Shown here one piece after another: positions 2,433-57,178 of a stretch of DNA of 64,000 nucleotides (the first letter of the stretch is position 1; every line of letters begins with the position of its first letter). The stretch spans positions 57,042,001 to 57,106,000 of the forward strand of contig OZ076409.1 of NCBI GenBank assembly GCA_964187785.1, in the 5' to 3' direction. Position numbers and translations under genes: made by a program. The notes beneath the pieces were generated by a model that did no database searches, was not told where the DNA came from, and was given only the letters and a program-made list of their open reading frames with translations. The DNA comes from Amphiscolops sp. MND2022 (taxonomy: Eukaryota).

Positions 2433-3067
2433 ATTTTTGTTCCAAACGGGTGTTGACATGACATGCAACCCAAACAAAAATTTTCAAATTTTGGGAACAG
2501 CCAGCTTTATAGGCTAAAAGTAATGGAGCCACATTCGACCTTTTGTATCTGCGAACCATACATTGCAGGTCAGAACTCCGTTAAGCTCTAAGCGGAGTTG
2601 AAGACAAACTATAGTAACTCAATTTGTTCTCAGCCACTCCTTAGTTAATAGTAGTATATGTGCGAGCTGATCAGGTGGGGGGGGGGGGGCTGAAAGACCC
2701 TCCATGTTTTAACATAGGCTATAGCGAGCCGAGAGCCGAGAAGGGTCTTCCACCCCTTTACAAAGCTTGGGCTAATTTTTGCTCGATTCTGATTGGCTGA
2801 CGACTCGTCTTGGGTTTTTCGTGCTCGATTCTGATTGGCTGACGACTCGAGTCGTGTACTTTTGCACGATTCTGACGACTTGACTCACTGGTAATGAGCC
2901 GTGTGATTGTCAATGTATAAATATGTGTTCAATGTATAAAGATCGGGAATAGCTTCGGTAATGTTTTAAGGTAGGGAATAGGGTTTTTTGGCACTGTGCG
3001 ACATTTTCGGCACTGTGACACTTTGGGCAAAATTACAATTTTTGGGTGGCTGCCGCCGCCGCCGAGC

Positions 3068-3160
3068 AATATTTTATCCGCCCGCGCAATATTTTATCCG
3101 CCTGCGGAATATTTTATCCGCCACCGGAAAAATTTATCCGCCACGGGAATAATTTATCCG
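3068..3160. repeat. Five 20-bp subterminal tandem repeats (AATATTTTATCCGCC core), left end of Polinton
   Basis: Exact 20-bp period visible; mirrored at 16814-16906. Confidence 0.9.
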
Positions 3161-3305
3161 TCATAAAGGTTTAGCTCATTACTTGACTACTATACGTTGA
3201 GGAAAAAAATCATGTTTAAATAAAAAAAATTTAAATTATAATGTATAAATGTACTTCAATCACATGTATAAACTGCACTTTACAATAAGCATGAGTTACA
3301 TATAA

Positions 3306-3687
3306 TTACATTAACATCGAGAGTACATTAACATCGTGAACTCCTGTAAGTTGCTCTTGCTGGAACTTGAAGAGATGAAAAGCGGAATATAAGGCATAGA
3401 ATCCGCAGACGCTGGGATGTGACTGCAACTTTACTGGAACCATCTTTTGGTAGTCTTGCTTCAGAAAATTGCATGATCCACCAGGAAGAGTCTGCAAAAT
3501 ACAATTGCTGTTTAAATTTGGCAATCATTACCCAGTGCTCGCCAGACATGTAACTTGGTTCAGTATTGACAATAGCAAGTGTATCATTTGGCAGATTAGG
3601 GACACGATCAGAGTGAAATGAGCCGATGTACCGATACTTGAGGAGAGGAATACGATCAATAATCTGCCGCAATGCAATGTCATCCAT
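3306..3687 (-). pseudogene. Adenain-like cysteine protease (left arm), frameshifted
   Basis: GEHW and YFADS in one frame (3328..3747), QSHPSVCGFY in another (3306..3524). Confidence 0.85.
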
Positions 3688-3688
3688 A

Positions 3689-5031
3689 TTAGGTATTTTT
3701 ACCGACAACGCCAAACTTGTCGACTGCAACCGACGACATTCGTTCACCCAATATAATGACTTCTGTTACACTTTCAAGCGTTTCATTAAAGTTGAGTTCC
3801 AGGCGCAATGGTTCGCCAATCAATTCCGGATAGTGGCAATGTTCAGTAGCGTCTTGCATTGATGTCAAATCAAACACGAGCACATAGTGATCCTTGAAGT
3901 TGTCAATCGGGATTGATGGTAAATCGTCATGAAAGTTCATTGCTCTCATTGTTGTAACATAGAGACGGCAATTATCGGACGTGTCATAGTCAACAACAGA
4001 CTGACCGCCGCGTAGTATTCTAATGTGCCTCAATCCAAACTGTTGATACCAGTATGGAGTTTCAGTAAAGGAACCGTAAAGGCAGAATTTGTATTCATTG
4101 CTATGGCGATACGTCGCATCGGTGCATTGTTGAAAATGTTTTCTTGTATAAATTGATTCTGTCGGGCGGGAATGATAAAAGTCTTGGCAAGTGTTTCCAA
4201 GTAGTTATATTCTACTGGACTGTATGCTAGCATATCCATTCGCTTGTTGTGATAATCGTCTTTGAGTGTAATACGGCGATTATAAAGCGAACAATCTACA
4301 ATTCCAAGGCTAACGTTAGGTTTGTCACTAATCATGTAAAAATTGGGTCGAGTTCTAGTTAGTCGTATTCTAACTTTCATGTTTGGGTACGATAGCTCTG
4401 AAGTGGTGAAAAAATCAACACCCAATTTACCATACAGCATAAATCCGTCAGGTCTGGAGAACATTTTCATTCTCCTTGAAAAGAATGGATCCTCCAAGGG
4501 GTTATCCATAGCGTCTTCTGGATTTGCTTCAAAGTCATAACCTTCACAATGTAGCACTCCCTTGTACTCAGAAATGGCTCCTTTAAAAGTGTTGGAAATG
4601 TAAAATTTATGAGCATAAAGTCCATTTGAATTGTAAATTTGCTGATTGTTTATATAAACTTCCACATTGGAAAAAATGGAGTGCATAATGTTGTTCACAT
4701 GGGTAATTAAGGGAACCTCGTTGTCGTCGACGGTATCAGCCTTTTTATCTTCTCCTTCATTGTGTTCCTTTTTGGCTTCTTTTTTGTACGAATCAAATCC
4801 CCGATGCTTCACCAATTTGAGTACCAAAGACAAATACGTTTGACGCAAATCAGTGTAATTGTTGCGATTAGTTTGAAATTCAAACTCGATACTGTTTTCA
4901 TCCAATGACGTTGTAGGATAAATTTGTTGTTCATGCGACGAAAGTACGTCATCGACAACTGGGACTTTACCGCCAACACTGCCAGAAACGGCCACAAAAG
5001 GTTGGTACCGAAAATTACTTTGTGCATTCAT
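3689..5031 (-). pseudogene. Major capsid protein (double jelly-roll, Polinton PY/hexon-like), left arm, one frameshift near 4075
   Basis: ORFs 4030..5031 and 3689..4033. Motifs IYPTTSL..SIEFEF..YTDL, VNNIMHSIFSNVEVYIN, LYGKLGVDFF and VFDLT are typical of Polinton MCP. Confidence 0.85.
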
Positions 5032-5033
5032 GT

Positions 5034-5393
5034 TTAGCGTGAAATGTTTGTGAAAATGTCTCTGCGCGAGCGACTGTTTATGTTGGTGGATTTTGTAGGA
5101 ATGAATCTGCGCGTTCTTTTGCTACCGCCACCTAGTTGTTTTCTCAACGTCTTTTTGCCAACACTTGTTACAGCCGATTTTAAATTTTTCTTTCCACTAA
5201 TTACTTCTGCCATTTCAGGTACAGCATACTCCAACAAGTCAGCTCCAACTCTTCGTGCAGCTGGGACGATAAATTGTTTAACAAAAAGAACTGCGGTTCT
5301 CCCAATAACTTGAGCAAGTGCTCCAAATCCTCTTCCGCGTTGTCTTGTTACTCCTCTATAATACGGTAGTTCAATTTCTCTTGAGGCAACCAT
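5034..5393 (-). CDS. Basic Polinton core-like protein (left arm)
   Basis: 119 aa, Arg/Lys-rich, with QRGRG and QLGGG motifs; lies between the minor and major capsid genes. Confidence 0.65.
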   Translation of the reverse strand: MVASREIELPYYRGVTRQRGRGFGALAQVIGRTAVLFVKQFIVPAARRVGADLLEYAVPEMAEVISGKKNLKSAVTSVGKKTLRKQLGGGSKRTRRFIPTKSTNINSRSRRDIFTNISR

Positions 5394-5411
5394 TTCGCAC
5401 AGTGTTTATTG

Positions 5412-6215
5412 TTAGTAATGAATGTCTGAAACTTTTCTAAACATTAGCATAAGACGTGTGATTCCAACAGAGACAAATGGAATCTTTTCACCCGAGGTGT
5501 CCCTCAGATCAATATGTATACTATGAAAGGAATTTTTCAATAGGCGACGAAATTGAAGGTTACTAAAAGTTTGGTAATTCATGTATTGTCCAGTAGTGAT
5601 TACGTCTCCGGATTTCAGCTTGGAAATGAAAGGGAAGCAACGCAACAGGGGTGCTTTTGTGTCTCCAACAATGTTGTACTCCACAATATCAGTGTAAGTC
5701 ATTAGCGAATGAATACGAACAATATCGTACGCAAACTTTGGCTCATGAGGTCCCTTACCTCGCATCAAAATCCCTTTGTCGTCTCCAACATCGCCACCAA
5801 ATATATTTCCCAAGTCTGTACTGAAAATGACTAGGCTAGAGTCGTCACTAATGAGTGAAAGTTCAATTTTTTGTGTGCGACGAGATACTTTAACAGTAAT
5901 GCAATTTTCATTGTGATTGTTTCTCTCTTGTATAAGCAAATTCATTGCTTCAACAATGTCGGGTACGGATGAATACAGCCCAGGTTCCAAGTAATAGGCT
6001 GTTGTCGTTTTGGAGTAGATTGCGTCAAAAAATAGAAATTTCCCATCTGTAACATTCTGGTACATTGAAGGGTAGGAAATTTCCGAAATTGCAACCTCTC
6101 ATTGCCCTTCCAAATTGACTTGATCTGGCAAAAAGTTTGTAAATGAACTAAGTGTATTGTCAGGAAACAGTTCAGATGACGCATTAGAGACCAACTCTAT
6201 TGTAAAGGAATCCAT
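5412..6215 (-). pseudogene. Minor capsid protein (penton-like), left arm, in-frame TGA at 6099-6101
   Basis: MDSFTIELVSNAS..FPDNTLSSFTNFLP..LEGQ*EVAISEISYP continues into ORF 5412..6065 (YTDIVEYNIVGDTKAPLLR..IHIDLRD). Confidence 0.8.
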
Positions 6216-6217
6216 AA

Positions 6218-7155
6218 CTAAATGACTCTAATCAACTCCTTTTCATAAAACTTGCCTTTGATAACTTCGCCTTGTTCATCTTGTAATTTTATGTGGGCGG
6301 TTTGCGTGTAGCAAGTGCAACAATTTTAAAAATTTCGTTTGTATATTGCGGCTTGTATCCTTTTCTAAACGGTAAATCTTGCTTGGAAATTCGGACGCGG
6401 TGTCCAACGTGGAACTTTGGTTTGTTAAAGTCTCTGATTGGTTTACTGTATAGCACAGACATAAAGTCAGAGTTTTTAACATTGCTCGGGTTCATATGTA
6501 TTGATCTATTCCTTCACGTAATCAGCGTTGTAACAAATTGAGGCAACTTGTGAATATACTTGTATCCATAGTCTTCAATGTAGCGATACAAAACATTTTT
6601 CAATGAACGAATAGCTCTCTCGGCGAATGCTGCCTTTGTTTCACTCATTGTTGAATAAATCTGTATTCCTTCTCTGTCGCAAAACTTTTTAAATTCACCA
6701 GCAATTTCTTTTCCCTTGTCAACCCAAATCTTTTGTGGTCTTTTCCGCTTTGTAATCATTTGCGTAAAGGCTCTAAGTGCCTCCTTAGAGTCCTTTGTTT
6801 TCAATCCTCTCACGTTTATTGTTTTGTCAAACACGTCCTGGCGAAGTAGCAAGTACTTTATTCCTCTGTTATCCTTTGCCAGTTTATCAACATATGCCAA
6901 GTCCATGCACCAAATTTCATTCTTGTATCTAGCAAACGCTCTCATACGTTTAAACTTGCGTGTTGCAAGTGTAAATTTTGTATAAGAGTCTTTTGAATGT
7001 AAAAACTGTCTAACCTTGGAAACGGGTAGCTTGCTAGCTTTTGCCAGATTTCGCACAGAGCCATATGCTGCAGGACCATGTGTATATAGTCTTTGAAGCT
7101 TTTGTCGCTCAGATTTTGAAAGGGATCCAGTTTCCTTTCTCTTTTGCTTTGGCAT
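6218..7155 (-). pseudogene. Retroviral-like (RVE) Polinton integrase, left arm; nonsense codon at 6514 plus C-terminal frameshift
   Basis: WCMDL, VDKGKE and AERAIR DDE motifs; AGA>TGA relative to the right arm. Confidence 0.9.
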
Positions 7156-7522
7156 TCTGATTTAGGACTATACTAGGAGAAATGTCGGCTGCGTCCAGTA
7201 AAGTAAAGTAAATGTCGGGTATGTCAGCATTTTTTCTACGCAAATGTTGAGCAAAATCTTGCAACAGTACTCCAGTATCTGTACCGTCTAGCACGATAGT
7301 GTTAGAGAGAGACAACTTTATACGTGGGGATGCTAAAAGTTTATCAACCAATGAATCTGCCTTGGCAAACAACTTTTTGTTTATATCCTTTTTCAGCAAA
7401 TCAACTTGGGACGTAGGAGTTTGTTGAGGTTGATATTTGGGTAGGTCCACTTTTAACGTCGTGGACTTTGTTGTGTTTAGCTTGTTGAGAAGTGAAGCAG
7501 GTACAAGAACAAACTGTTCCAT
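7109..7522 (-). CDS. Polinton hypothetical protein upstream of integrase (left arm)
   Basis: MEQFVLVP... ORF, identical in protein to 12451..12864. Confidence 0.65.
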   Translation of the reverse strand: MEQFVLVPASLLNKLNTTKSTTLKVDLPKYQPQQTPTSQVDLLKKDINKKLFAKADSLVDKLLASPRIKLSLSNTIVLDGTDTGVLLQDFAQHLRRKNADIPDIYFTLLDAADISPSIVLNQNAKAKEKGNWIPFKI

Positions 7523-7523
7523 A

Positions 7524-7829
7524 TCAAGACAAGTGATCAATGACAAATGGGGTAATGGTATCAACCAGTTGTAAACCTCTCTCTGACGTCAAGAGATCGC
7601 GTCTCTGCTTCCAATTAGTTCGCTTTAAAGAGAGTAAGTGCAACTCTCGTTTATATTTGATAACGTGATGTCTTTTTACGTTTTGCAAGTTTCCTTTGAG
7701 TATGTTTACTATGCACTCGCATAGAAACCGAATAAATTCTTTTGGACACGATTGGAGAAATTGAATTTTGCACTTGCGGGGGGAAAATGATTGGAACGCG
7801 TGGAGAATAGAGAGATTTTGTGTGCTCAT
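7524..7829 (-). CDS. Small basic Polinton protein (CECIVNILKGN motif), left arm
   Basis: 101 aa open in both arms; resembles a small protein seen next to the ATPase in animal Polintons. Confidence 0.65.
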   Translation of the reverse strand: MSTQNLSILHAFQSFSPRKCKIQFLQSCPKEFIRFLCECIVNILKGNLQNVKRHHVIKYKRELHLLSLKRTNWKQRRDLLTSERGLQLVDTITPFVIDHLS

Positions 7830-8484
7830 CGTCCAAAATTGTCAAGTGCTTCAAACTCTCTGGCACGTAAAACTTTGATGGAGTCTTTCCACTGTTTGTG
7901 CAGTAACGTAATCTATCGTCTGTTCGCAGCGATGAATCAATGAGCAAATGACCAAAAGGAACAGACGTTGCATCTCTGTACCAATCCACGAGAGAGGAAC
8001 CTAGTCCTAGTTGAATACTAAGTGTATTTATTTGCATAACATCCCGGGGCGATTTGAACAATGCAATGTGTGTAGTTTGTAGCTCTATATCGCGTCCGAG
8101 CGTGCTCTTGTGGAACAAGTTGTGTTTAATGTATATAGTACTAAGTCCACGGTGTCTTCCAGCAGTAGCAATTTTGACAAATTCTTTGGAACTGCACACT
8201 TCCTCACAAGAATCGTCAAAAATGAGGAGATACTTTGTTCCGTTGTTTTTCAATGAATCAATCAACTCAAAATTCACTCCCTTGACAAACTCGATACAAT
8301 CAATTTCTTTTTGCATCTTGTCGTGTAGTGATTGATAATATTGGTAAAAGAAATAAATCTTGTCAAATTTGGGTTGAAATGTTCCATTAGTTAACCACTC
8401 GTAAATCAACTGAGTTTTACCAGATTCGCTCCGTCCAACCATTGACATAAATACACGGTTTTTGGTGGAAATTAACTTGTTCAT
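7651..8484 (-). CDS. FtsK/HerA (A32-like) packaging ATPase, left arm
   Basis: Walker A GRSESGKT, Walker B LLIFDD, AGRH arginine motif. Confidence 0.9.
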   Translation of the reverse strand: MNKLISTKNRVFMSMVGRSESGKTQLIYEWLTNGTFQPKFDKIYFFYQYYQSLHDKMQKEIDCIEFVKGVNFELIDSLKNNGTKYLLIFDDSCEEVCSSKEFVKIATAGRHRGLSTIYIKHNLFHKSTLGRDIELQTTHIALFKSPRDVMQINTLSIQLGLGSSLVDWYRDATSVPFGHLLIDSSLRTDDRLRYCTNSGKTPSKFYVPESLKHLTILDDEHTKSLYSPRVPIIFPPQVQNSISPIVSKRIYSVSMRVHSKHTQRKLAKRKKTSRYQI

Positions 8485-8737
8485 AGTCTCGGTGTTGGAA
8501 CAATGACTCCTGCAGCGCTACATAAAATTCCAACCCACACTGTAGATTCTTCACAACTTGTTGCCAAATGAATTCTCCAAAAGCTCCCCAAAATTATCAG
8601 CAAAATGATAAAAAAATTGGGACAGGAACACAATTAGTGACCTAGAGCAAGTTTGTCCCACGCACGTCCACGATTTTCGTTCACTGTTATTTCCGTCAAA
8701 AACAATTTTTTTCCGAGTTCAAGTTGGTCTCAGTCAT
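8481..8737 (-). pseudogene. Small two-TM protein, left arm, frameshifted
   Basis: Reverse complement of 11238..11492 with homopolymer indels. Confidence 0.65.
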
Positions 8738-8850
8738 CTAGCTTGCTAGCGTGAGTGTATATTTAGGAATGAATCTCCTGTGGAAAAAATTTTGGTTGAA
8801 CAAAAAAATTAAATTAGTATGAATGAGTAATACAAAGACGTACAATAAAT

Positions 8851-9305
8851 TTACAAATTGAAATATTGCACAGTCCATTCTCCAAACGCTTTTGCTTTCC
8901 GCTCAGCACAGTGTAGAATTGTCTTGTGTCTGCAGGGATAGCTAGTGCACAGCCAGTCAGTGTTTAAATGTTGAATCTTGGGGCAACCATAGTCATCCAA
9001 GTTTTCCACTTCCTTACCCAGTAATGTACTCAAAAATTTACACTTTTCCAATCCTTTTGCAAAGTACTCGGCTCTGTATTGTCGCAATTCAGCCAACATG
9101 GTGTTGATACGGCTATAGTCTAGTGAGCCACTTTTCCAATCATTTTTTTGTGCAAGTTTTGGGTACACCAGAGTGTTTGATGTGTTGGTTGATAATTTTT
9201 GGGCGGTTTAAAGGAATATCCAAACACTTGTCCGTCAATATAAACACCCAATTCCTTGACTACATTCTTTTCCCCAAGTTCAATATCCAACACTATAAGC
9301 GACAT
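8851..9305 (-). pseudogene. DEDD-like exonuclease, left arm, frameshift near 9145
   Basis: ORFs 9120..9362 and 8851..9168 together mirror 10671..11123. Confidence 0.6.
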
Positions 9306-9307
9306 GA

Positions 9308-9714
9308 CTAAAAGTCTACTAAATTGAAAATGGAGGGAACAAACAATTTCAAGTAGAGACAAAACAAAAGTCCAGTCACGTTACCCAATAAACACGAGTT
9401 TGGACCTCGACCAATCATATAACAGTATCCTTGACCGTTGCCGTTGTGTAAATAAACAGCGCCGGAAGCGTCATATAGTATTGCATGTAGTCTAAACACT
9501 TTGGAAAAACGGAAAATGTTGTCCAAGTGAGAGTCTCCATAACCAATCAATCCTCCAAAATGAAATTCTTGGTCCATTTCGCGTGGAGTGAAATGTTCTC
9601 GTCCAAGCAATGACATACACAAAGAAACAAATTTTTACGTACAGTATTCTTTGTAAAGCGAATTTTCAATCCAGAGTAAAAGCGAAATACTTTGACTAGA
9701 AACAGTACGTCCAT
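9308..9714 (-). pseudogene. HD-motif (PLA2-like?) protein, left arm, frameshift near 9580
   Basis: ORFs 9547..9735 and 9308..9622 mirror 10264..10683; the motif reads LYDA here. Confidence 0.5.
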
Positions 9715-9958
9715 TTCGGGTAAGAAACAACTCAATTATGAATTGTGGATTCATCCAATACGATGCATCGCTTATAGAATGTATCCAAGTAGCTTAAAAG
9801 ATACAATCGTTTAGCAAGTAGTGTCTTGTACTCTGTTAGCTTTAATTCAATTTCAGTATCCTTGAGGTACGTATTATTGCGATAACGATACACTACAATG
9901 TCTACTTTGTCTGTATCAGTTTGAAATCCTACGCAAATTTTACGTCTACCATTGTAAA

Positions 9959-10246
9959 TTGCAACAATTACCAGAGCTCGAACAATGCGAGGACGAACTT
10001 TCTTGCCTTAAATGGACAATTTACAATAGTAGACGTAAAATTTGCGTAGGATTTCAAACTGATACAGACAAAGTAGACATTGTAGTGTATCGTTATCGCA
10101 ATAATACGTACCTCAAGGATACTGAAATTGAAATAAAGCTAACAGAGTACAAGACACTACTTGCTAAACGATTGTATCTTTTAAGCTACTTGGATACATT
10201 TTATAAGCGATGCATCGTATTGGATGAATCCACAATTCATAATTGA
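9959..10246 (+). pseudogene. 5'-truncated Polinton ORF cut by the palindrome centre
   Basis: The frame runs through the 55-bp spacer (QQLPELEQCEDELSCLKW) into the right arm and has no ATG. Confidence 0.55.
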
Positions 10247-10263
10247 GTTGTTCCTTACCCGAA

Positions 10264-10683
10264 ATGGACGTACTGTTTCTAGTCAACGTATTTCGCTTTT
10301 ACTCTGGATTGAAAATTCGCTTTACAAAGAATACTGTACGTAAAAACTTGTTTCTTTGTGTATGTCATTGCTTGGACGAGAACATTTCACTCCACGAAAT
10401 GGACCACGAATTTCCTTTTGGAGGAATGATTGGTTATGGAGACTCTCACTTGGACAACATTTTCCGTTTTTCCAAAGTGTTTAGACTACATGCAATACTA
10501 CATGACGCTGCCGGCGCTGTTTATTTACACAACGGCAAAGGTCCAGGATACTGTTATACGATTGGTCGAGGTCCAAACTCGTGTTTATTGGGTCACGTGA
10601 CTGGACTTTTGTATTGTCTCTACTTGAAATTGTTTGTTCCCTCCATTTTCAATTTAGTAGACTTTTATTCATGTCGCTTATAG
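10264..10683 (+). CDS. Putative phospholipase A2-like protein
   Basis: GGMIGYGDS...RLHAILHDAAG recalls the GxG loop plus HD dyad of viral PLA2 domains; resemblance judged by eye only. Confidence 0.45.
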   Translation: MDVLFLVNVFRFYSGLKIRFTKNTVRKNLFLCVCHCLDENISLHEMDHEFPFGGMIGYGDSHLDNIFRFSKVFRLHAILHDAAGAVYLHNGKGPGYCYTIGRGPNSCLLGHVTGLLYCLYLKLFVPSIFNLVDFYSCRL

Positions 10684-11123
10684 TGTTGGATATTGAACTT
10701 GCGGAAAATAATGTAGTCAAGGAATTGGGTGTTTATATTGACGGACAAGTGTTTGGATATTCCTTTAAACCGCCCAAAAACTATCAACCAACACTTCAAA
10801 CACTCTGGTGTACCCAAAACTTGCACAAAATTGATTGGAAAAGTGGCTCACTAGACTATAGCCGTATCAACACCATGTTGGCTGAATTGCGACCATACAG
10901 AGCCGAGTACTTTGCAAAAGAATTGGAAAAGTGTAAATTTTTGAGTACATTACTGGGTAAGGAAGTGGAAAACTTGGATGACTATGGTTGCCCCAAGATT
11001 CAACATTTAAACACTGACTGGCTGTGCACTAGCTATCCCTACAGACACAAGACAATTCTACACTGTGCTGAGCGGAAAGCAAAAGCGTTTGGAGAATGGA
11101 CTGTGCAACATTTCAATTTGTAA
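10671..11123 (+). CDS. DEDD-family 3'-5' exonuclease-like protein
   Basis: N-terminal IVLDIE..VKEL, then FKPP, H.I.W.SG..DY, NLDDYGCP and C-terminal HCA. Confidence 0.6.
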   Translation: MSLIVLDIELAENNVVKELGVYIDGQVFGYSFKPPKNYQPTLQTLWCTQNLHKIDWKSGSLDYSRINTMLAELRPYRAEYFAKELEKCKFLSTLLGKEVENLDDYGCPKIQHLNTDWLCTSYPYRHKTILHCAERKAKAFGEWTVQHFNL

Positions 11124-11237
11124 ATTTATTGTACGTCTTTGTATTACTCATTCATACTATTTTAAGTTTTTTTGTTCAACCAAAATTTTTTCCACTGGAG
11201 ATTCATTATTAAATATACCCTCACGCTAGCAAGCTAG

Positions 11238-11492
11238 ATGACTGAGACCAACTTGAACTTGGAAAAAATTGTTTTTGACGGAAATAACAGTGAACAAAAA
11301 TCGTGGACGTGCGTGGGAGAAACTTGCTCTAGATCACTAATTATGTTCCTGCCCCAATTTTTTATCATTTTGCTGATAATTTCGGGGAACTTTTGGAGAA
11401 TTCATTTGGCAACAAGTTGTGAAGAATCTACAGTGTGGGTTGGAGTTTTATGTAGCGCTGCAGGAGTCATTGTTCCAACACCGAGACTATGA
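11238..11492 (+). CDS. Small two-TM membrane protein
   Basis: 84 aa with two hydrophobic segments (LIMFLPQFFIILLII; VWVGVLCSAAGVIVP); stop overlaps the ATPase ATG (ATGA). Confidence 0.7.
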   Translation: MTETNLNLEKIVFDGNNSEQKSWTCVGETCSRSLIMFLPQFFIILLIISGNFWRIHLATSCEESTVWVGVLCSAAGVIVPTPRL

Positions 11493-12322
11493 ACAAGTTA
11501 ATTTCCACCAAAAACCGTGTCTTTATGTCAATGGTTGGACCTAGCGAATCTGGTAAAACTCAGTTGATTTACGAGTGGTTAACTAATGGAACATTTCAAC
11601 CCAAATTTGACAAGTTTTTTTTCTTTCACCAATATTATCAATCACTATACGACAAGATGCAAAAAGAAATTGATTGTATCGAGTTTGTCAAGGGAGTGAA
11701 TTTTGAGTTGATTGATTCATTGAAAAACAACGGAAGAAAGTATCTCCTCATTTTTGACGATTCTTGTGAGGAAGTGTGCAGTTCCAAAGAATTTGTCAAA
11801 ATTGCTACTGCTGGAAGACACCGTGGACTTAGTACTATATACATTAAACACAACTTGTTCCACAAGAGCACGCTCGGACGCGATATAGAGCTACAAACTA
11901 CACACATTGCATTGTTCAAATCGCCCCGGGATGTTATGCAAATAAATACACTTAGTATTCAACTAGGATTAGGTTCCTCTCTCGTGGATTGGTACAGAGA
12001 TGCAACGTCTGTTCCTTTTGGTCATTTGCTCATTGATTTATCGCCGCGAACAGACGATAGATTACGTTACTGCACAAACAGTGGAAAGACTCCATCAAAG
12101 TTTTACGTGCCAGAGAGTTTGAAGCACTTGACAATTTTGGACGATGAGCACACAAAATCTCTCTATTCTCCACGCGTTCCAATCATTTTCCCCCCGCAAG
12201 TGCAAAATTCAATTTCTCCAATCGTGTCCAAAAGAATTTATTCGGTTTCTATGCGAGTGCATAGTAAACATACTCAAAGGAAACTTGCAAAACGTAAAAA
12301 GACATCACGTTATCGAATATAA
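11489..12322 (+). CDS. FtsK/HerA (A32-like) packaging ATPase, right arm
   Basis: Walker A GPSESGKT, Walker B LLIFDD, AGRHRGLS motif; 277 aa intact. Confidence 0.92.
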   Translation: MNKLISTKNRVFMSMVGPSESGKTQLIYEWLTNGTFQPKFDKFFFFHQYYQSLYDKMQKEIDCIEFVKGVNFELIDSLKNNGRKYLLIFDDSCEEVCSSKEFVKIATAGRHRGLSTIYIKHNLFHKSTLGRDIELQTTHIALFKSPRDVMQINTLSIQLGLGSSLVDWYRDATSVPFGHLLIDLSPRTDDRLRYCTNSGKTPSKFYVPESLKHLTILDDEHTKSLYSPRVPIIFPPQVQNSISPIVSKRIYSVSMRVHSKHTQRKLAKRKKTSRYRI

Positions 12323-12449
12323 ACGAGAGTTGCACTTACTCTCTTTAAAGCGAACTAATTGGAAGCAGAGACGCGATCTCTTGACGTCAGAGAGAGGTTT
12401 ACAACTGGTTGATACCATTACCCCATTTGTCATTAATCACTTGTCTTGA
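12144..12449 (+). CDS. Small basic Polinton protein (CECIVNILKGN motif), right arm
   Basis: 101 aa; overlaps the ATPase 3' end by 179 nt in another frame. Confidence 0.65.
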   Translation: MSTQNLSILHAFQSFSPRKCKIQFLQSCPKEFIRFLCECIVNILKGNLQNVKRHHVIEYKRELHLLSLKRTNWKQRRDLLTSERGLQLVDTITPFVINHLS

Positions 12450-12450
12450 T

Positions 12451-12864
12451 ATGGAACAGTTTGTTCTTGTACCTGCTTCACTTCTCAACAAGCTAAACAC
12501 AACAAAGTCCACGACGTTAAAAGTGGACCTACCCAAATATCAACCTCAACAAACTCCTACGTCCCAAGTTGATTTGCTGAAAAAGGATATAAACAAAAAG
12601 TTGTTTGCCAAGGCAGATTCATTGGTTGATAAACTTTTAGCATCCCCACGTATAAAGTTGTCTCTCTCTAACACTATCGTGCTAGACGGTACAGATACTG
12701 GAGTACTGTTGCAAGATTTTGCTCAACATTTGCGTAGAAAAAATGCTGACATACCCGACATTTACTTTACTTTACTGGACGCAGCCGACATTTCTCCTAG
12801 TATAGTCCTAAATCAGAATGCCAAAGCAAAAGAGAAAGGAAACTGGATCCCTTTCAAAATCTGA
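12451..12864 (+). CDS. Polinton hypothetical protein upstream of integrase (right arm)
   Basis: ATG 2 nt after the previous stop; open and identical in both arms. Confidence 0.65.
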   Translation: MEQFVLVPASLLNKLNTTKSTTLKVDLPKYQPQQTPTSQVDLLKKDINKKLFAKADSLVDKLLASPRIKLSLSNTIVLDGTDTGVLLQDFAQHLRRKNADIPDIYFTLLDAADISPSIVLNQNAKAKEKGNWIPFKI

Positions 12865-13755
12865 GCGACAAAAGCTTCAAAGACTATATACACATGGTCC
12901 TGCAGCATATGGCTCTGTGCGAAATCTGGCAAAAGCTAGCAAGCTACCCGTTTCCAAGGTTAGACAGTTTTTACATTCAAAAGACTCTTATACAAAATTT
13001 ACACTTGCAACACGCAAGTTTAAACGTATGAGAGCGTTTGCTAGATACAAGAATGAAATTTGGTGCATGGACTTGGCATATGTTGATAAACTGGCAAAGG
13101 ATAACAGAGGAATAAAGTACTTGCTACTTCGCCAGGACGTGTTTGACAAAACAATAAACGTGAGAGGTTTGAAAACAAAGGACTCTAAGGAGGCACTTAG
13201 AGCCTTTACGCAAATGATTACAAAGCGGAAAAGACCACAAAAGATTTGGGTTGACAAGGGAAAAGAACTTGCTGGTGAATTCAAAAAGTTTTGCGACAGA
13301 GAAGGAATACAGATTTATTCAACAATGAGTGAAACAAAGGCAGCATTCGCCGAGAGAGCTATTCGTTCATTGAAAAATGTTTTGTATCGCTACATTGAAG
13401 ACTATGGATACAAGTATATTCACAAGTTTCCTCAATTTGTTACAACGCTGAATACGAGAAGGAATAGATCAATACATATGAAGCCGAGCAATGTTAAAAA
13501 CTCTGACTTTATGTCTGTGCTATACAGTAAACCAATCAGAGACTTTAACAAACCAAAGTTCCACGTTGGACACCGCGTCCGAATTTCCAAGCAAGATTTA
13601 CCGTTTAGAAAAGGATACAAGCCGCAATATACAAACGAAATTTTTAAAATTGTTGCACTTGCTACACGCAAACCGCCCACATAAAATTACAAGATGAACA
13701 AGGCGAAGTTATCAAAGGCAAGTTTTATGAAAAGGAGTTGATTAGAGTCATTTAG
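12818..13755 (+). CDS. Retroviral-like (RVE) Polinton integrase, right arm; core open to 13684, last ~24 aa out of frame
   Basis: DDE triad WCMDL / VDKGKE / AERAIR. After PPT* the shifted frame reads KLQDEQGEVIKGKFYEKELIRVI*, a typical Polinton integrase C-terminus. Confidence 0.92.
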
Positions 13756-13757
13756 TT

Positions 13758-14561
13758 ATGGATTCCTTTACAATAGAGTTGGTCTCTAATGCGTCATCTG
13801 AACTGTTTCCTGACAATACACTTAGTTCATTTACAAACTTTTTGCCAGATCAAGTCAATTTGGAAGGGCAATGAGAGGTTGCAATTTCGGAAATTTCCTA
13901 CCCTTCAATGTACCAGAATGTTACAGATGGGAAATTTCTATTTTTTGACGCAATCTACTCCAAAACGACAACAGCCTATTACTTGGAACCTGGGCTGTAT
14001 TCATCCGTACCCGACATTGTTGAAGCAATGAATTTGCTTATACAAGAGAGAAACAATCACAATGAAAATTGCATTACTGTTAAAGTATCTCGTCGCACAC
14101 AAAAAATTGAACTTTCACTCATTAGTGACGACTCTAGCCTAGTCATTTTCAGTACAGACTTGGGAAATATATTTGGTGGCGATGTTGGAGACGACAAAGG
14201 GATTTTGATGCGAGGTAAGGGACCTCATGAGCCAAAGTTTGCGTACGATATTGTTCGTATTCATTCGCTAATGACTTACACTGATATTGTGGAGTACAAC
14301 ATTGTTGGAGACACAAAAGCACCCCTGTTGCGTTGCTTCCCTTTCATTTCCAAGCTGAAATCCGGAGACGTAATCACTACTGGACAATACATGAATTACC
14401 AAACTTTTAGTAACCTTCAATTTCGTCGCCTATTGAAAAATTCCTTTCATAGTATACATATTGATCTGAGGGACACCTCGGGTGAAAAGATTCCATTTGT
14501 CTCTGTTGGAATCACACGTCTTGTGCTAATGTTTAGAAAAGTTTCAGACATTCATTACTAA
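13758..14561 (+). pseudogene. Minor capsid protein (penton-like), right arm, in-frame TGA at 13872
   Basis: Same as the left arm; TGA stands where W is expected in LEGQWEVA. Confidence 0.8.
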
Positions 14562-14579
14562 CAATAAACACTGTGCGAA

Positions 14580-14939
14580 ATGGTTGCCTCAAGAGAAATT
14601 GAACTACCGTATTATAGAGGAGTAACAAGACAACGCGGAAGAGGATTTGGAGTACTTGCTCAAGTTATTGGGAGAACCGCAGTTCTTTTTGTTAAACAAT
14701 TTATCGTCCCAGCTGCACGAAGAGTTGGAGCTGACTTGTTGGAGTATGCTGTACCTGAAATGGCAGAAGTAATTAGTGGAAAGAAAAATTTAAAATCGGC
14801 TGTAACAAGTGTTGGCAAAAAGACGTTGAGAAAACAACTAGGTGGCGGTAGCAAAAGAACGCGCAGATTCATTCCTACAAAATCCACCAACATAAACAGT
14901 CGCTCGCGCAGAGACATTTTCACAAACATTTCACGCTAA
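14580..14939 (+). CDS. Basic Polinton core-like protein (right arm)
   Basis: 119 aa, basic, with QRGRG and QLGGG possible protease cleavage motifs. Confidence 0.65.
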   Translation: MVASREIELPYYRGVTRQRGRGFGVLAQVIGRTAVLFVKQFIVPAARRVGADLLEYAVPEMAEVISGKKNLKSAVTSVGKKTLRKQLGGGSKRTRRFIPTKSTNINSRSRRDIFTNISR

Positions 14940-14941
14940 AC

Positions 14942-16285
14942 ATGAATGCACAAAGTAATTTTCGGTACCAACCTTTTGTGGTCGTTTCTGGCAGTGTTGG
15001 CGGTAAAGTCCCAGTTGTCGATGACGTACTTTCGTTGCATGAACAACAAATTTATCCTACAACGTCATTGGATGAAAACAGTATCGAGTTTGAATTTCAA
15101 ACTAATCGCAACAATTACACTGATTTGCGTCAAACGTATTTGTCTTTGGTACTCAAATTGGTGAAGCATCGGGGATTTGATTCGTACAAAAAAGAAGCCA
15201 AAAAGGAACACAATGAAGGAGAAGATAAAAAGGCTGATACCGCCGACGACAACGAGGTTCCCTTAATTACCCATGTGAACAACATTATGCACTCCATTTT
15301 CTCCAATGTGGAAGTTTATATAAACAATCAGCAAATTTACAATTCAAATGGACTTTATTCTCAAAAATCTTACATTTGCACCAATTTTAAAGGAGCCATT
15401 TCTGAGTACAAGAAGTGCTACATTGTGAAGGTTATGACTTTGAAGCAAATCCGGAAGACGCTATGGGTAACCCCTTGGAGGATCCATTCTTTTCAAGGAG
15501 AATGAAAATGTTCTCCAGACCTGACGGATTTATGCTGTATCGTAAATTGGGTGTTGATTTTTTCACCACTTCAGAGCTATTGTACCCAAACATGAAAGTT
15601 AGAATACGACTAATTAGAGCTCGACCCAATTTTTACATGATTAGTGACAATCCTAACGTTAGCCTTGGAATTGTAGATTGTTCGCTTTATAATCGCCGTA
15701 TTACACTCAAAGACGATTATCACAAGAAGTGAATGGATATGCTAGCATACAGTCCAAGTAGAATATAACTACTTGGAAACACTTGCCAAGACTTTTATCA
15801 TTCCCGCCCGACAGAATCAATTTATACAAGAAAACATTTTCAACAATGCACCGATCGGACGTATCGCCATAGCAATGAATACAAATTCTGCCTTTACGGG
15901 TTCCTTTACTGAAAATCCATACTGGTATCAACAGTTTGGATTGAGGCACATTAGAATACTACGCGGCGGTCAGTCTGTTGTTGACTATGACACGTCCGAT
16001 AATTGCCGTCTCTATGTTACAACAATGAGAGCAATGAACTTTCATGACGATTTACCATCAATCCCGATTGACAACTTCAAGGATCACTATGTGCTCGTGT
16101 TTGATTTGACATCAATGCAAGACGCTACTGAACATTGCCACTATCCGGAATTGATTGGCGAACCATTGCGCCTGGAACTCAACTTTAATGAAACGCTTGA
16201 AAGTGTAACAGAAGTCATTATATTGGGTGAACGAATGTCGTCGGTTGCAGTCGACAAGTTTGGCGTTGTCGGTAAAAATACCTAA
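14942..16285 (+). pseudogene. Major capsid protein, right arm; frameshifts near 15413 and 15757, stop at 15730
   Basis: ORF pieces 14942..15505, 15415..15732 and 15773..16285 are collinear with the left-arm MCP. Confidence 0.85.
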
Positions 16286-16286
16286 T

Positions 16287-16668
16287 ATGGATGACATTGC
16301 ATTGCGGCAGATTATTGATCGTATTCCTCTCCTCAAGTATCGGTACATCGGCTCATTTCACTCTGATCGTGTCCCTAATCTGCCAAATGATACACTTGCT
16401 ATTGTCAATACTGAACCAAGTTACATGTCTGGCGAGCACTGGGTAATGATTGCCAAATTTAAACAGCAATTGTATTTTGCAGACTCTTCCTGGTGGATCA
16501 TGCAATTTTCTGAAGCAAGACTACCAAAAGATGGTTCCAGTAAAGTTGCAGTCACATCCCAGCGTCTGCGGATTCTATGCCTTATATTCCGCTTTTCATC
16601 TCTTCAAGTTCCAGCAAGAGCAACTTACAGGAGTTCACGATGGTAATGTACTCTCGATGTTAATGTAA
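16287..16668 (+). pseudogene. Adenain-like cysteine protease (right arm), frameshifted
   Basis: GEHW and FADS, then QSHPSVCG in a second frame; same lesion as the left arm. Confidence 0.85.
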
Positions 16669-16813
16669 TTATATGTAACTCATGCTTATTGTAAAGTGCA
16701 GTTTATACATGTGATTGAAGTACATTTATACATTATAATTTAAATTTTTTTTATTTAAACATGATTTTTTTCCTCAACGTATAGTAGTCAAGTAATGAGC
16801 TAAACCTTTATGA

Positions 16814-16906
16814 CGGATAAATTATTCCCGTGGCGGATAAATTTTTCCGGTGGCGGATAAAATATTCCGCAGGCGGATAAAATATTGCGCGGGCGGATAA
16901 AATATT
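16814..16906. repeat. Five 20-bp subterminal tandem repeats, right end of Polinton
   Basis: CGGATAAAATATT units, the reverse complement of 3068-3160. Confidence 0.9.
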
Positions 16907-17506
16907 GCTCGGCGGCGGCGGCAGTCACCCAAAAATTGTAATTTTGCCCAAAGTCTCACAGTGCCGAAAATGTCGCACAGTGCCGAAAAACCCTATTCCC
17001 TACCTTAAAACATTACCGAAGCTATTCCTTATCTTTATACATTGAACACATCTTTATACATTGACAATCACTCGGCTCAATACCAGTGAGTCAAGTCGTC
17101 AGAATCGTGCAAAAGTACACGACTCGAGTCGTCAGCCAATCAGAATCGAGCAAAAATTAGCCCAAGCTTTGTAAGGGGGTGGAAGACCCTTCTCGGCTCT
17201 CGGCTCGCTATAGCCTATGTTAAAACATGGAGGGTCTTCCAAACCCCCCCCCCCCCACCTGATCAGCACGCACATATACTACTGTTAATAACTAACTCTT
17301 TTGTTATAGCAGTACCAACTTTGCAGTATGATTTTCGATTATTTCGAGAAAAATTACCAATATTTCAGCAAAAGATGCCCAAAATTGATGATTGCTGCCT
17401 TGTTTTCAATTTGGTGATAGTATTGGACCTTTGGTTGAGGAATATCTTGTAATTTCATCAGTGTATGCGTTAATTGACTACATTATCCTAATTTTCTTTT
17501 TATGGC

Positions 17507-21403: not shown

Positions 21404-24400
21404 GTTATAAATAATCATTCTTCTCACCGCTGCTTTGCTCAGTCCTGAAAGAAAACTTTTGAAAAATTTGAGGGAAAATTTTGTGGAAAACTAAATCAAT
21501 TTCAATCACGGTGATAGTTCTAGAATTAATGAAGATGACTGTTTTGAAAACTCGCTTGTCATATTCGCCATCTGTTTTCATGGTTGAACAATGTTCTTAA
21601 ACAGTTCTTATTTGATAGACGCCGGCCGCAATTGAATGAAAGTGTAACGTCCGGCTAGCGGCGCACATCCAGGAAGAGGGACAATGCCTAGGGTGCTTAA
21701 ACAGGAGACCGTTGTCTTACTACACTCCTAAACACTAGTTTTTGATCCCAAAATGGTCTCCATGGGGGACTTTTCTAACGTCTAAGGAGGCTCCTCTAGT
21801 TAGAGCTCCGAGGCGACGTGCCGGCACTCTCAAAGTCCGGACACGCCCCACAAGCCTGTAAAAACGTATCCTAAGGTTTTTAGCGCGTTCCTGCCATCTC
21901 CCACATACTTCCGAGGTCCAAAAAGGTGTTTATCCGAAAAATGTCATTTCGACAGTTATGGGCATGAAATGCCGACCTAGAAGGTCAGACATGGGGAAAG
22001 TGACAAAATGCATTATAACAAATTAACAAAACAAAGGGGGATAAGCCCCGAGTGGAAATACAGTTACTGTTTGTAGATTTTCGGGGATCCAGTCACGCCG
22101 TTCTAGAATGGTTCTGCTTTCTCAGGGATGACATAGCACCGGGTAGCGTTCGTCGTATTCTGTCCCGTGTGGATCTTCATGTCATCAGTTGTTTTGCCTC
22201 TTCTCTTCATTATCTCCTGTCGTTCCTCTTATTCACGTGTTCTCTTCTTTCATTTTATGGGCTTCAAGGACCTGCCAGGTCGGCCATTTTGATTCGCACA
22301 TTTTTTGGTTCTTGATCGAATTTTTCATCGAAAATTTGGTGTTGACTGGTGGACGTTACAAAGCGTCAGTTAAAACTTCAACACTTCAAAAATTGCACAA
22401 GTGTGAAACTGTCGAGGTGTGAATTTCACTGAAGTGAATTTTTTGGGAGAAAATTGATTTTTGCCTAGTCAAAAACAGTTATTGAGCTCCGAAGCGAATC
22501 CGAGAAGAGATTAGCTTTCATTTTTCTCTGGGCGCTCTCTCTCTCTCTCGTGACACATTCTATGAAGTTGATCTATGACGCCTGTTGGATAAAATCTAAA
22601 AAATGATTTTTTCTAATAAAAAGTCGAAGAACATACTCGAAAATGTGCCTCCGCATCCACAAGTGCAGTTTGCGATAAAAGAGGTTAGTCGGCCACGTGG
22701 CAAGAAACGGCTTGTTTCAAATTATCTCGAATCTTTTTTGAAATGTTATGTATTGATTGATTAACTCCCTGAATTGAGCTCTCACTGGTGATAGGTAAAT
22801 TGTGACTTTAATAATCTCCGATGGTTGACAAACAATTACCGATTCTGTGCGTATTGATTGTGGCTGATGGTTGTCGGAAGGTACTGTTAAGCTTCGAAAA
22901 AAAAGAGCAGCTGAAAAGGTTTCGATCCTGCATATCCTGCATCGGTGATAACACAAGTAGTGAGAACTGAAGAAATATTCTAGAGCATTCAAATGCCCCA
23001 AACGAAGAACTGCTAGTAGTTACCAAACTTTTGAATGTATCACTTATTAGTTTCACTAGACAGATTCGCCAAATGACTTTACTGAAAACTTTATGAAACC
23101 CAAACCTTTTATGAAAAGCACTGGGCATAGACGTGACAACACAAATGATCACTTTAGTAGAAGTAACAAAAGCAAATAGCTCAGACAAAGGAACGACTGT
23201 TTTTAGCCAGCTGTTTAATGACTTTAGTGAACAAAACCCAAAAAGGAAGAATTTGGTTCACGAACTAACCGCAACTATTCGAACACTAAAAACATACATA
23301 CATGTTCGGAAAAAGGAGTGAAGAGATGCTAATCAGGAGAGTTAAACTGACCATTCGATCTATGCGGATGTCGGTATACATTTAAGAATCAGTGAATTTC
23401 CATTTGAATAACATTTCGGCCGAGAATCGAAAAACAGCAAATTTTAGCACCAAAAAGCGACCGACTGGTTTAAAAGTAATGTCGGTTCAGCCAATCACGA
23501 AACTCTATATGCATTTGCAATCAGGAAAACTAACTGATTGTGCTGCGCGGTATTCTCGAAAAATATAATTGCTGCTCGTACAAAGAGAAACAAAAATCCA
23601 GAAACTGTCCATTCAACGAAGAGAAAAACGAAGCAGTTATGATGTTTTTGGTTTAAAAACAACTAGTATAAAAACAACTCTCGTAAATCTTTTCGTATTT
23701 GTTGTGTTCTCTTGATACAAAACGAATTAAAAATATGGAACTGCCTTCATGCGATCTTTCTACTTTATGGGACTGTTTTCAGGCCACTGAGTAGAGTTAC
23801 ATTATCATCATGATAAGACTAGCTGGTACTTCAGACTATTTATGGTAACATCAACAACGATAACATAATAATGTCTAGAGTTTGTCCTCTAGCTATGTTT
23901 CACTCCCCCCATGACTGGACGAGAGGTGACCAATGGGGGAATATGAGCTTTATGACGGTTTTCCGTTCATGATTTGTTGTTGATAGTCGCGGTGGCCCGC
24001 GTCAGGTCCTTGTTTGCCGTCCAGTTATTGTTTGTTTTCTCCTGGACGGTCACTTCGTTTTTTCCGCTGGTTATATTTTCAGGCTGTCTTCTTTGTCCGA
24101 TTTTTCCCCCGAGCGTCCAGTCTTTTGACGGTGTTTCCTTTATTCGGTTGGTACTGAATATTCAGTATAATAATCGCATTCGTTTTTCTCAAACGTTTTG
24201 ATTAACGGAGATTATGTTTCGGTGCTATTTTGTTTCGGTGCTTGTGTTTATCTTACTAATTAGATATACTTCGGGTGTTTCTGCTTCTCAGGTGTTTTGT
24301 ACAAGGTCTCTATACCTCGGTATAGGATTTCAGTATAATTTTTAAGTACTTTACCACTGCTATCCCTGATGTGTAGCTTTGTGTTTGCCCTTCTGGCGTC

Positions 24401-26202
24401 CCCAATGACACAGTCATTTTCCGCGTCTGCCATGTTCTCCATTCCAACTGTTAACGGGCCTGTGCTGCTTTGTGGATGATCCAGTTGCATGGATGAACCC
24501 CTATATGAGCCGGAAATCTGACGGTTCCGGAATTTCGGCCGTCCTCTCGAATACTGCTTTCTTTCGTGTGTGTGTTGGTGGTTTGATTTTTTGTCTGCTC
24601 CACCGGTGTCTATCGTAGTTTCTGCAAGTGGTGTTGCTGTTGTTTGCAGAGTCGCTGTGTGATCTCGGGTAGTTGATCCGTTCTGGAGACCTTATGAACC
24701 ATCCATCCGGTCTGCACTATCTAATTCCCCTGCTGCTGGGCTCCTGTGCAAGTTCCAAATGTGTGAAGTTCTGTGTTCCCATGTAAAATATTTTTGACAG
24801 AAATAGTTATCGTAGGTTTTGTAAACAATACAGTTTGTTGTCATTTATCAGAATATGCACTGTCGATTTTTGGTTTCGATAGTTTTTTCTTCAGGAACCG
24901 AAACGGATAATTACTAACCCCTTTTGAACTTTTCTTCTGTTTCATTGGTAGCTGATCAGCTCCGTTGAGTGAGCATTCATGTACGGTATCTGGTTTTGCT
25001 GAAACACAACTCTTTGCTATGTTTTTCAACATTGCAAGGTTGAGCATGTTGTTAATTTCCGTTTTTGTTTCGCGACCGTACTGTAGATCCAAGGCGGATT
25101 CGTTAACTTTGTATGTGGTGTTTACTTCATTACGTTGAGTGCTAAGTCTAGCGCCTAACTGAATTTTTCTCCCGCGTTTATGTTCGTCAAATATGCTTCC
25201 TTCAGAGTTCTTACTCCACGTTCAACGAGTCCTGTTGTGGTATGGATATATGATGTTCCGTATTTGAGTTTTATATGGTGATTTTTGCAAAATTTTTGGA
25301 AGTTCGGCCCGTAAACGCGGTAGCTTTATCGGTCCTAAATGTTTTCGGGTTGCTGTTTAAATTTAAGTATGCTTCTTCGAGAGTAGGATAGAAAAATTTT
25401 TGGTATTTTTGGTAATTGGACCGTTTAAATCCAATTGGAGTTCTTTGTTCGGATCGATGAAAACCAGTAGCTGGTTTGATCCGTACTATGAAAGTTAGGT
25501 TGAGAATATATAATGGACAGTTTGCACGGTATACATCCGTTGCATTTTTTCTCAGTGGCCTCTGTAATCTCTGGCCGCAACAAGTCCTTGGCCGCCTTTG
25601 ACATCTTTTCGTTTGGCGTAGGGCCCTTGTGGAGGAGGCTGATGACTGTAGCGTGCAGGTTTTCAGGTACTACAATGCGGTCCGCGTAAAAAAAACTAGT
25701 CCGTATCTCGTGGACAATATTTTTCTATATAATATGTATTCGTCTGTTGATGCTCGAGTCAAACATGATGTCTTGTGTTTTGAAGAGGCTGGGATTAATG
25801 GTTGTCTCAGTCATTAGTAGCTGAAGGTCGGTGGAGGAGTTATTTTCTTTTTCTATCACCGCGTTGCCTGTTGCGGAGGTCCCAGTCAGTCGCTTCCTCT
25901 GCATTAACGCTGAGTGTTTGGCCCATCTGTATGTATTGGACGCTGTCATTGGCCACATATTTCGACCAGGTGACAGCTGGAAATTCGAGGACAGCTGGGT
26001 CTTGGTCAGTGTTCTTCCCATCCTCCATCGGTATATACTCCTTTTATATGATTCCGTGTTGCGTAATGAGGGTCCGAGTTGGTGTTCAGGTAAAATTTTC
26101 TGCTGTTGTGGGCGGTCAGGTTCAAAGAACAGGTCTATTGTCTAATGTTCAATTCTTCTGGTTTTTGGTTGGAAGCCTTCGTGTAGGTTTCGTTACCCAT
26201 TT

Positions 26203-29200: not shown

Positions 29201-29456
29201 GTTTCACTCTCGAACTTTATTCTCTTGTCGTTTACGTCTCGTTAGTCTACAGTAACTGGTTTTACTGCTCTTGTGTTGTTAAATTTTGTCTTCGGGAAGA
29301 GAGCTACCGGCGAGCCTGTAACTACTATGAATTTTTTGGTCAGGTATTGACCAATGGCGTTAGGGTTTAGAACGGTGGTCCACTCCTATTGTTCGTTCCT
29401 ATTGTTCGTTCCTATTGTTCGTTCCTATTGTTCGTTCCTATTGTTCGTTCCCATTG
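26203..29456. repeat. Near-identical internal duplication A-B-A-C-B with (CCTATTGTTCGTT)x5 arrays
   Basis: ~26203-26528 matches ~27277-27601, and ~26531-27276 matches ~28704-29450. 13-bp arrays at 27211-27277 and 29385-29456; duplicated ORF translations in the track. Confidence 0.9.
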
Positions 29457-57143: not shown

Positions 57144-57156
57144 TGGCGCAGTCAGC
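57144..57156 (+). promoter_or_regulatory. Primer binding site TGGCGCAGTCAGC (possibly tRNA-Ser)
   Basis: TGG directly after the LTR-terminal CA; tRNA identity inferred from similarity to known TGGCGCAGTC PBSs. Confidence 0.8.
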
Positions 57157-57178
57157 ATCTTGAACAAAAAGAAAAACA

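Follow-up and report, generated by a model that had tools for sequence, protein, structure and literature searches.

The 64-kb window analysed here (OZ076409.1:57042001-57106000, from the 1.07 Gb Amphiscolops sp. assembly that was also the genome searched; unprefixed positions are those of the window) carries at 2650-17283 an inverted duplication made up of the structural half of a Polinton and its mirror copy. Self-BLAST finds a single inverted match, 2822-17152 (98.4%), plus a match of 2641-2807 to 17125-17291, and the two arms differ by 1.35% substitutions overall (up to position 9930 their alignment shows 97 substitutions and 53 gap columns, including one 42-bp indel in the terminal inverted repeat, TIR). 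The arms are separated by a 55-bp spacer, the element termini are AGTAGT...ACTACT, GTTAAT stands on either side as a target site duplication (TSD), and the 64-kb window contains no N bases (Table 1). The element is 84% as long as a normal member of its family. The initial annotation of this DNA had described just such a single palindrome of near-normal length, and the self-comparison and arm alignment bear it out.

The genes in both arms point outward and every gene is present twice. Three of the gene labels first proposed for the arms hold: those of the ATPase (Pfam Pox_A32, E 4.8e-6, above the cut-off) and the integrase (Pfam rve, E 2.2e-8), and that of the major capsid protein (MCP), which is not named by Pfam or PDB sequence searches but for which a structure model of a natural homologue (P0002, 96% identity; predicted local distance difference test, pLDDT, 85.7) matches the double jelly-roll capsid proteins of PBCV-1 (E 1.9e-15), mavirus (1.5e-13) and Sputnik (1.7e-13). 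This model came from a deeper alignment, an earlier MCP model having reached a pLDDT of only 33.6. Three labels are less firm: for the minor capsid protein there is an Atlas lead (0.97; in one of the clusters listed, 59% of the members carry Sputnik V18/19), the protease has a weak Peptidase_C5 match that lies below the cut-off (E 0.005, measured on the L034 copy), neither of these is matched in a PDB sequence search, and the 119-aa "core-like protein" has no Pfam match. The 150-aa open reading frame (ORF) may have an exonuclease-like fold (an Atlas lead of only 0.85). The integrase, minor capsid, MCP and protease genes are broken in both arms and three accessory ORFs in the left arm only. The protein-primed DNA polymerase (pPolB) had been reported missing, and a tblastn search of the 64-kb window with the family polymerase (below) indeed gives no match at E<1. 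The window element is a non-autonomous derivative of a Polinton family and not an autonomous member of it; it retains both ends and lacks an essential replication gene, the polymerase.

Table 1. Features of the palindromic element and its flanks, in window coordinates.
Feature	Position	Strand	Basis or remark
Host repeat, left half, interrupted by the element	2440..2649	.	1102 candidates, 40 scored; adjoins right flank with 6-bp overlap
Left TSD copy GTTAAT	2644..2649	+	Sequence; empty-site geometry
Left arm, inverted structural half, genes outward	2650..9961	-	Self-comparison
Left native TIR, ~570-610 bp; closest relative is the right TIR (2.1% apart)	2650..3260	+	
Adenain-like protease (weak match), frameshift common to right arm	3312..3687	-	
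Double jelly-roll MCP gene, one arm-specific frameshift	3689..5031	-	
119-aa basic ORF	5034..5393	-	
Probable minor capsid gene, one internal stop, right arm likewise	5412..6215	-	
Retroviral-like integrase, internal stops and C-terminal frameshift	6221..7155	-	
Intact 137-aa and 101-aa ORFs	7109..7829	-	
A32-like packaging ATPase, frame unbroken	7651..8484	-	
Accessory ORFs of 84, 150 and 134 aa, frameshifted in left arm only	8484..9714	-	
Fold-back switch point AATTG, one side of native 5-bp inverted repeat	9957..9961	+	
55-bp spacer (loop), native family sequence	9962..10016	+	Joined to right-arm sequence in 28/28 other loci
Right arm, structural half natively continuous with spacer	10017..17283	+	
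Accessory ORFs of 139, 150 and 84 aa, unbroken	10264..11492	+	
A32-like packaging ATPase	11489..12322	+	Pfam
101-aa and 137-aa ORFs	12144..12864	+	
Integrase (rve), C-terminal frameshift, left arm likewise	12818..13752	+	Pfam
Probable minor capsid gene, one internal stop	13758..14561	+	
119-aa basic ORF	14580..14939	+	
MCP gene, arm-specific: two frameshifts and one stop	14942..16285	+	
Protease (weak match), frameshift same as left arm	16287..16662	+	
Right native TIR	16715..17283	-	
Right TSD copy GTTAAT	17284..17289	+	
Host repeat, right half	17284..17490	.	

Both flanks are halves of one high-copy host repeat with ~1,100 candidate copies, and at all six of the loci common to the best-40 lists for the two flanks these abut, in their coordinates, with an exact 6-bp overlap. 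The six loci (from the best 40 scored of 1102) are paralogous empty sites and not the allelic site, and it is in these paralogous copies of the repeat that the empty-site geometry proposed as a check is found. The GTTAAT duplication is the true TSD of a genuine insertion at both ends.

The parent family and the centre of the palindrome

Normal members of the family are ~17.4 kb long and consist of a polymerase half and a structural half, with a TIR of ~570 bp. Exact 20-mer markers for the centre and the capsid gene have 103 matches each in the genome, and among the 100 listed for each the only opposite-strand pair is that in the window; such markers miss pairs (17% are missed by both at 1.3% private change per arm), and "only one structural palindrome" is a lower bound. 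In all 28 of the other loci fetched the spacer runs into a different half, and in three of four such halves fetched a polymerase ORF lies at most 10 kb away (1433 aa, 1444 aa and one that is split). A tandem duplication of 3.4 kb is present in the remaining half. The 1433-1444-aa ORF has exonuclease and PolB A/B/C motifs when read by eye, and Pfam and PDB sequence searches do not name it. Relatives that bear pPolB between the same termini, a search for which had been proposed, are thus found among the loci of normal layout.

Other features of the family were seen in passing. The polymerase at L033:391-4725 has C2H2 zinc-finger-like motifs at its start and is missed by the Pfam organellar/viral PolB model, and L033:7202-7450 is an 82-aa accessory ORF with a hydrophobic N-terminus and, by eye, a cysteine pattern reminiscent of EGF-like domains (no Pfam match). 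Apparent internal tandem duplications of 1.3-4.1 kb are frequent (L037; C5:72.22 Mb; C6:37.87 Mb; C11:55.26 Mb; C3:90.92 Mb; C9:6.22 Mb). The TIRs (2650-3260 and related loci) are highly mosaic among copies, with several terminal subtypes, modular 20-40-bp blocks and small internal hairpins, and are nonetheless matched inside each element.

The point at which the window element departs from the normal layout is a native inverted repeat, AATTG...CAATT, that encloses the 55-nt loop; it falls within a 137-aa accessory ORF whose start was on the lost half. A native repeat around a loop fits a strand whose 3' end turned back and primed synthesis on itself, and the fold-back (snap-back) origin proposed in the initial annotation is to that extent borne out: the element is nearly wholly self-complementary and fold-back-derived from the parental genome. 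The same annotation had suggested that the element moved as a palindrome. This is not shown for the window copy, whose junction has one match in the genome when up to 2 mismatches are allowed and is spanned at none of the 39 other places scored, a result named beforehand as one that would speak against mobility.

Divergence of the two arms

The time at which the arms separated can be estimated from the substitutions that they do and do not share, as follows: 65 other segments (67 were tried and 2 did not align; some are from the same copies) were projected onto the right arm. Fifteen minor alleles of an older subfamily are common to both arms in the junction-proximal tract, and both arms derive from this one older subfamily. 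Private substitutions comprise 37 that are common to both arms and 77 that are arm-specific, and these fall into 24 runs against a mean of 51 (0 of 20000 shuffles). The divergence is distributed in marked patches (variance/mean 5.5 per 500 bp). There are 66 arm-specific and 3 shared private substitutions in the diverged tracts (2621 bp), against 11 and 34, respectively, in the homogenised tracts (4077 bp), with tract limits that were drawn by eye once the data had been seen. The gene breaks common to both arms fall in the homogenised tracts. The left arm has 35 private substitutions that occur in none of the 65 other segments, and the two TIRs are each other's nearest relatives.

An alternative raised with the first description is that the fold-back formed in place, a normal element having broken internally, folded back, copied its structural half and rejoined through the left TIR with its flanks and TSD kept. 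The junction is found at this locus only, fold-back priming at short inverted repeats is a chromosomal route described in the portions consulted of PMC10622511 and PMC3907307, TIR homology would offer a way to rejoin, and internal tandem duplications are common in integrated copies. A late event of this kind predicts shared changes throughout the arms, which are not observed, and the arms therefore separated at or soon after insertion; with 3 shared against 66 arm-specific substitutions, formation in situ must fall in about the first tenth of the time of residence. The late form of the alternative thus fails and a very early one gives the same pattern as formation before insertion; we regard formation in situ as unlikely. 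The arms split at about the time of insertion, before nearly all private decay. Homogenisation of part of their length came later, through gene conversion or, with lower probability, polishing of the assembly.

The arms might also come from two copies joined by head-to-head insertion or ectopic recombination with loss of both polymerase halves. Hybrids of unlike halves do exist (TSD-bounded structural + ALT elements, below), the arms are ~2.5% apart near the junction, and at two of the nine sites where a shared minor allele is in one arm only, that allele belongs to the subfamily. Against this, there is a single TSD with the correct empty-site geometry, while recombination between two loci would leave unlike flanks, and no sampled copy is as close to either arm or either TIR as its counterpart within the element; we give this origin very little weight. 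An intermolecular switch from one co-replicating sister genome to another, prior to integration, would be a form of the explanation preferred below.

Other palindromes in the genome

Odd-length terminus pairs pointed to further palindromes. L046/47 is 12.6 kb long with polymerase-end arms of 4.15 kb that are 99.66% alike and the TSD AAGGTA, and it is the sole opposite-strand pair among 48 polymerase-marker matches. A third type of half, ALT, has polymerase remnants that are full of stops and a paralogue of the 150-aa ORF that is unbroken in 32 of 42 arms. It is joined to structural halves at four TSD-bounded loci (L044/45, L052/53, L096/97 and L098/99), and these polymerase-less, non-palindromic hybrids, each with its own TSD, suggest exchange of halves between co-replicating genomes. 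Most often ALT is found in ALT-ALT palindromes (the 66 marker matches include 13 pairs on opposite strands at distances of 10.7-13.0 kb), which encode no working polymerase, integrase or capsid. Both ends were seen at 17 of the 24 ALT-ALT loci examined, and 12 of these have an exact TSD, one a TSD with a one-base difference and four a mismatch, the chance of a TSD match being ~3e-4; six loci are gap-free with an exact TSD. The locus C3:52625552-52652996 (L048, L049, L094 and L095) is an ALT palindrome with the TSD AACGTC that has a polymerase half and a 200-N gap mid-element, a nested insertion or a mis-assembly.

Are these palindromes inherited as such? Junction J1 is present at 10 places with different flanks and J3 at two TSD-bounded loci, and probes for the four junctions, J1 among them, have no match in 11 non-palindromic halves. 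In a tree of inner segments (39 rows, with 6 omitted for poor cover) seven J1 loci form a clade with 100/100 support and the two J3 loci one with 99/98, the three older J1 loci being outside the clade or omitted. In a tree of outer segments (44 rows, 1 omitted) the two arms of a locus group as sisters at 11 of the 12 loci with an exact TSD (support 90-100; L068/69 is unresolved there) and at none of four clearly mismatched loci. The TIR subtype differs across the J1 clade yet agrees inside each TSD-bounded locus. Junctions inherited at unrelated target sites indicate that ALT palindromes were copied and re-inserted as palindromes, and the spread of arm divergence, 0.11-3.44% in the 10 TSD-matched loci measured, indicates insertions of many ages. 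Palindrome mobility, not shown for the window element, is supported for a sibling lineage built from the other half of the genome. Breakage in situ fails to explain one junction at 10 differently flanked places in one clade. The ALT junctions lie close together in an accessory region that is rich in repeats and surrounds a 250-aa ORF (L033:7465-8906), where J2 sits on an inverted repeat of at least 9 bp; the region is a possible fold-back hot spot. An apparent flipping of the spacer was dropped as a candidate, the orientation of a palindrome's spacer being merely that of its insertion.

A second family (75% nucleotide identity to the first, 10 termini) has a copy-back element at one of the four loci fetched: L154/155, 13.4 kb, has capsid-end arms of 1.72 kb (98.2%) and the TSD CCCAAG, and its polymerase end is replaced by an inverted copy of the TIR, the protease and the 3' part of the MCP gene. 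Its own marker missed it as a pair. Mirror-image forms have been made repeatedly, and from either end.

Lengths measured for 13 palindromic elements span 0.72-0.98 of the unit (gaps add to some of them), and among 32 terminus pairs of one TIR subtype none is shorter than 12.6 kb and none is a short internally deleted derivative. ALT loci are non-independent and this length pattern rests on about four origins; a length floor is suggestive of a packaging limit, and formation in situ predicts no such floor. The packaging floor of adenovirus is roughly 75%.

Elsewhere in the window there are a Gypsy-like long terminal repeat (LTR) retrotransposon at 56952-62863 (motifs by eye; identical 193-bp LTRs and a 1791-aa open frame), a piggyBac-like transposase remnant at 50503-51777 and BEL/Pao-like remnants at 38686-41156 (both labelled by eye), and decayed T-rich Gypsy-like segments on the minus strand at 816-1175 and 24000-30000, with near-identical direct repeats at 26201-29451.

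Origin of the palindromes and relation to known systems

We consider the window element to be an integrated snap-back defective Polinton genome that formed before integration, with a probability of about two in three. Polintons replicate by protein-primed strand displacement from terminal origins. If this took place outside the chromosome, a nascent strand begun at the structural end would have halted after ~7.3 kb, turned back and served as its own template as far as the end. The resulting linear molecule would have had a working origin and an attachment end on either side but no polymerase, which a co-resident helper would provide in trans. That molecule would have integrated once and then decayed, acquiring its arm-to-arm conversion tracts. 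The same process could yield the L046/47 polymerase-end copy-back, the capsid-end copy-back of the second family and the ALT-ALT lineage, which is gene-poor and would have been re-copied and re-inserted many times as a palindrome; packaging of palindromes in helper capsids is possible. The window element once coded for an integrase and a capsid and depended on a helper for the polymerase side alone; ALT-ALT needs everything (part of PMC6431247 treats the roles of polymerase and integrase in Polintons). Helper-driven replication, packaging and interference are what we infer from this scheme. The observation made in the initial annotation is confirmed, and its interpretation is partly supported, better at the level of the family than for the window copy.

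Several points weigh against a snap-back formed before integration. No second round of replication is visible for this molecule, its junction being unique. Had the fold-back formed in situ almost directly after insertion, the mutation pattern would be identical. The patchiness of the window element is atypical of ALT palindromes (variance/mean 0.5-2.0 in 9 of 10), and the centre-proximal tract is the diverged one. J1 has no obvious microhomology, and 5 of the 17 two-ended ALT loci are without an exact TSD (one by one base). The assembly handles palindromes badly, with 200-N gaps at many ALT centres; in all five cases in which the far side of an unpaired ALT arm was fetched and had no arm, the arm stops at or beside such a gap, and ALT ends that pair by flank with arms elsewhere (L051-L086 and L067-L158) point, together with the gaps, to mis-joins. 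The window junction is without read support: four runs (X1-X4), with no RNA run among those listed, share 0.06-0.07 of the words searched, and compared with 2440-10016 they contain ~93% identical relatives that leave the flank uncovered, one run contig showing the normal continuation at the switch point. The sources of these relatives, ~93% identical to the structural half, are a marine metagenome and organism A; no related locus in viral and metagenome contigs was confirmed. A joint on "opposite strands" in the runs was rejected as evidence; it is the normal layout as seen on half a stretch and says nothing on the junction.

These assembly problems bear on whether the palindrome is an artefact in which a second structural half was put for the polymerase half or reads were mirrored, artificial palindromes in long reads being known (PMC6218980, seen in part). 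The window is nevertheless free of N, its unlike flanks fit together into a single host repeat, overlapping by exactly 6 bp, the left-arm private substitutions are absent from all other segments while the TIRs are mutual nearest relatives, and six ALT loci are gap-free with exact TSDs. Polishing could still explain some homogenised tracts, and we think it most improbable that the element as a whole is artificial.

The window element resembles Polintons/Mavericks in its (AGT)2...(ACT)2 ends, 6-bp TSD, integrase, ATPase, jelly-roll capsid proteins and putative protease, and lies inside their size range of 12.7-24.6 kb (given in the text available from PMC8097293 and PMC6431247). It differs in its lack of pPolB and in an inverted repeat of 7.3 kb rather than the ~570-bp TIR of its family; vertebrate Maverick TIRs are 46-1,447 bp in the portion of PMC8097293 consulted. 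Snap-back and copy-back defective viral genomes are defined in an excerpt of PMC13506859. The former are self-complementary over nearly their whole length with one terminus at both ends, as are the window element and ALT-ALT, and the latter have a partial end duplication around a long loop, as do L046/47 and L154/155. Those known are described as arising transiently during infection, mainly by RNA viruses; those here are double-stranded DNA, integrated with TSDs and inherited. The rep-end and cap-end snapback genomes of adeno-associated virus (AAV), packaged in particles according to part of PMC8235507, are paralleled by the polymerase-end and capsid-end palindromes here; AAV replicates as hairpin-primed single-stranded DNA, whereas the palindromes here are protein-primed by family membership, 12-17 kb long and chromosomal.

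Defective adenovirus genomes with duplicated ends, treated by Daniell and Mullenbach (1978) and Lieber (1999), and the long palindromes of linear plasmids with terminal proteins have the same replication chemistry and reportedly include molecules with two copies of one end; these systems have no integrase and hence leave no TSD-bounded germline record. Non-autonomous DNA transposons and Foldback elements are mobilised in trans through intact ends, and long inverted repeats are known among them, but the arms here are former genes and not satellite-like, and the shortest pair spans 12.6 kb. No description of a palindromic Polinton was found in literature listings and abstracts, which do not take in Repbase and supplements and so leave room for an earlier mention, or by term search in the accessible portions of 10.1101/2024.01.15.575659, PMC6431247, PMC8504770 and PMC3185507.

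Polinton replication and particle movement have so far been largely inferred, and Polinton viral particles had not been observed according to the part of PMC8097293 consulted. Protein-primed strand displacement that passes through panhandle intermediates should produce integrated palindromes with TSDs. The inheritance of one junction by several loci points to a helper acting in trans, and packaging would set a minimum size. A broader picture, which we put forward tentatively and at somewhat less than even odds, is that the Polintons here replicate as free linear genomes, shed snap-backs and copy-backs from either end, which pass a capsid size filter of at least ~72% of unit length ahead of integration, and that one of these products has turned into a persistent palindromic satellite that swaps TIRs and halves with its helpers. 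Such forms are easily overlooked, as a search that requires both pPolB and integrase passes them by and assemblies are interrupted in the middle of them, and the divergence between their arms dates each insertion in the manner of LTR pairs. If this picture is true, the chromosome would preserve the dynamics of defective-interfering genomes as dated fossils and would speak, indirectly, for a virion stage in Polinton transposition.

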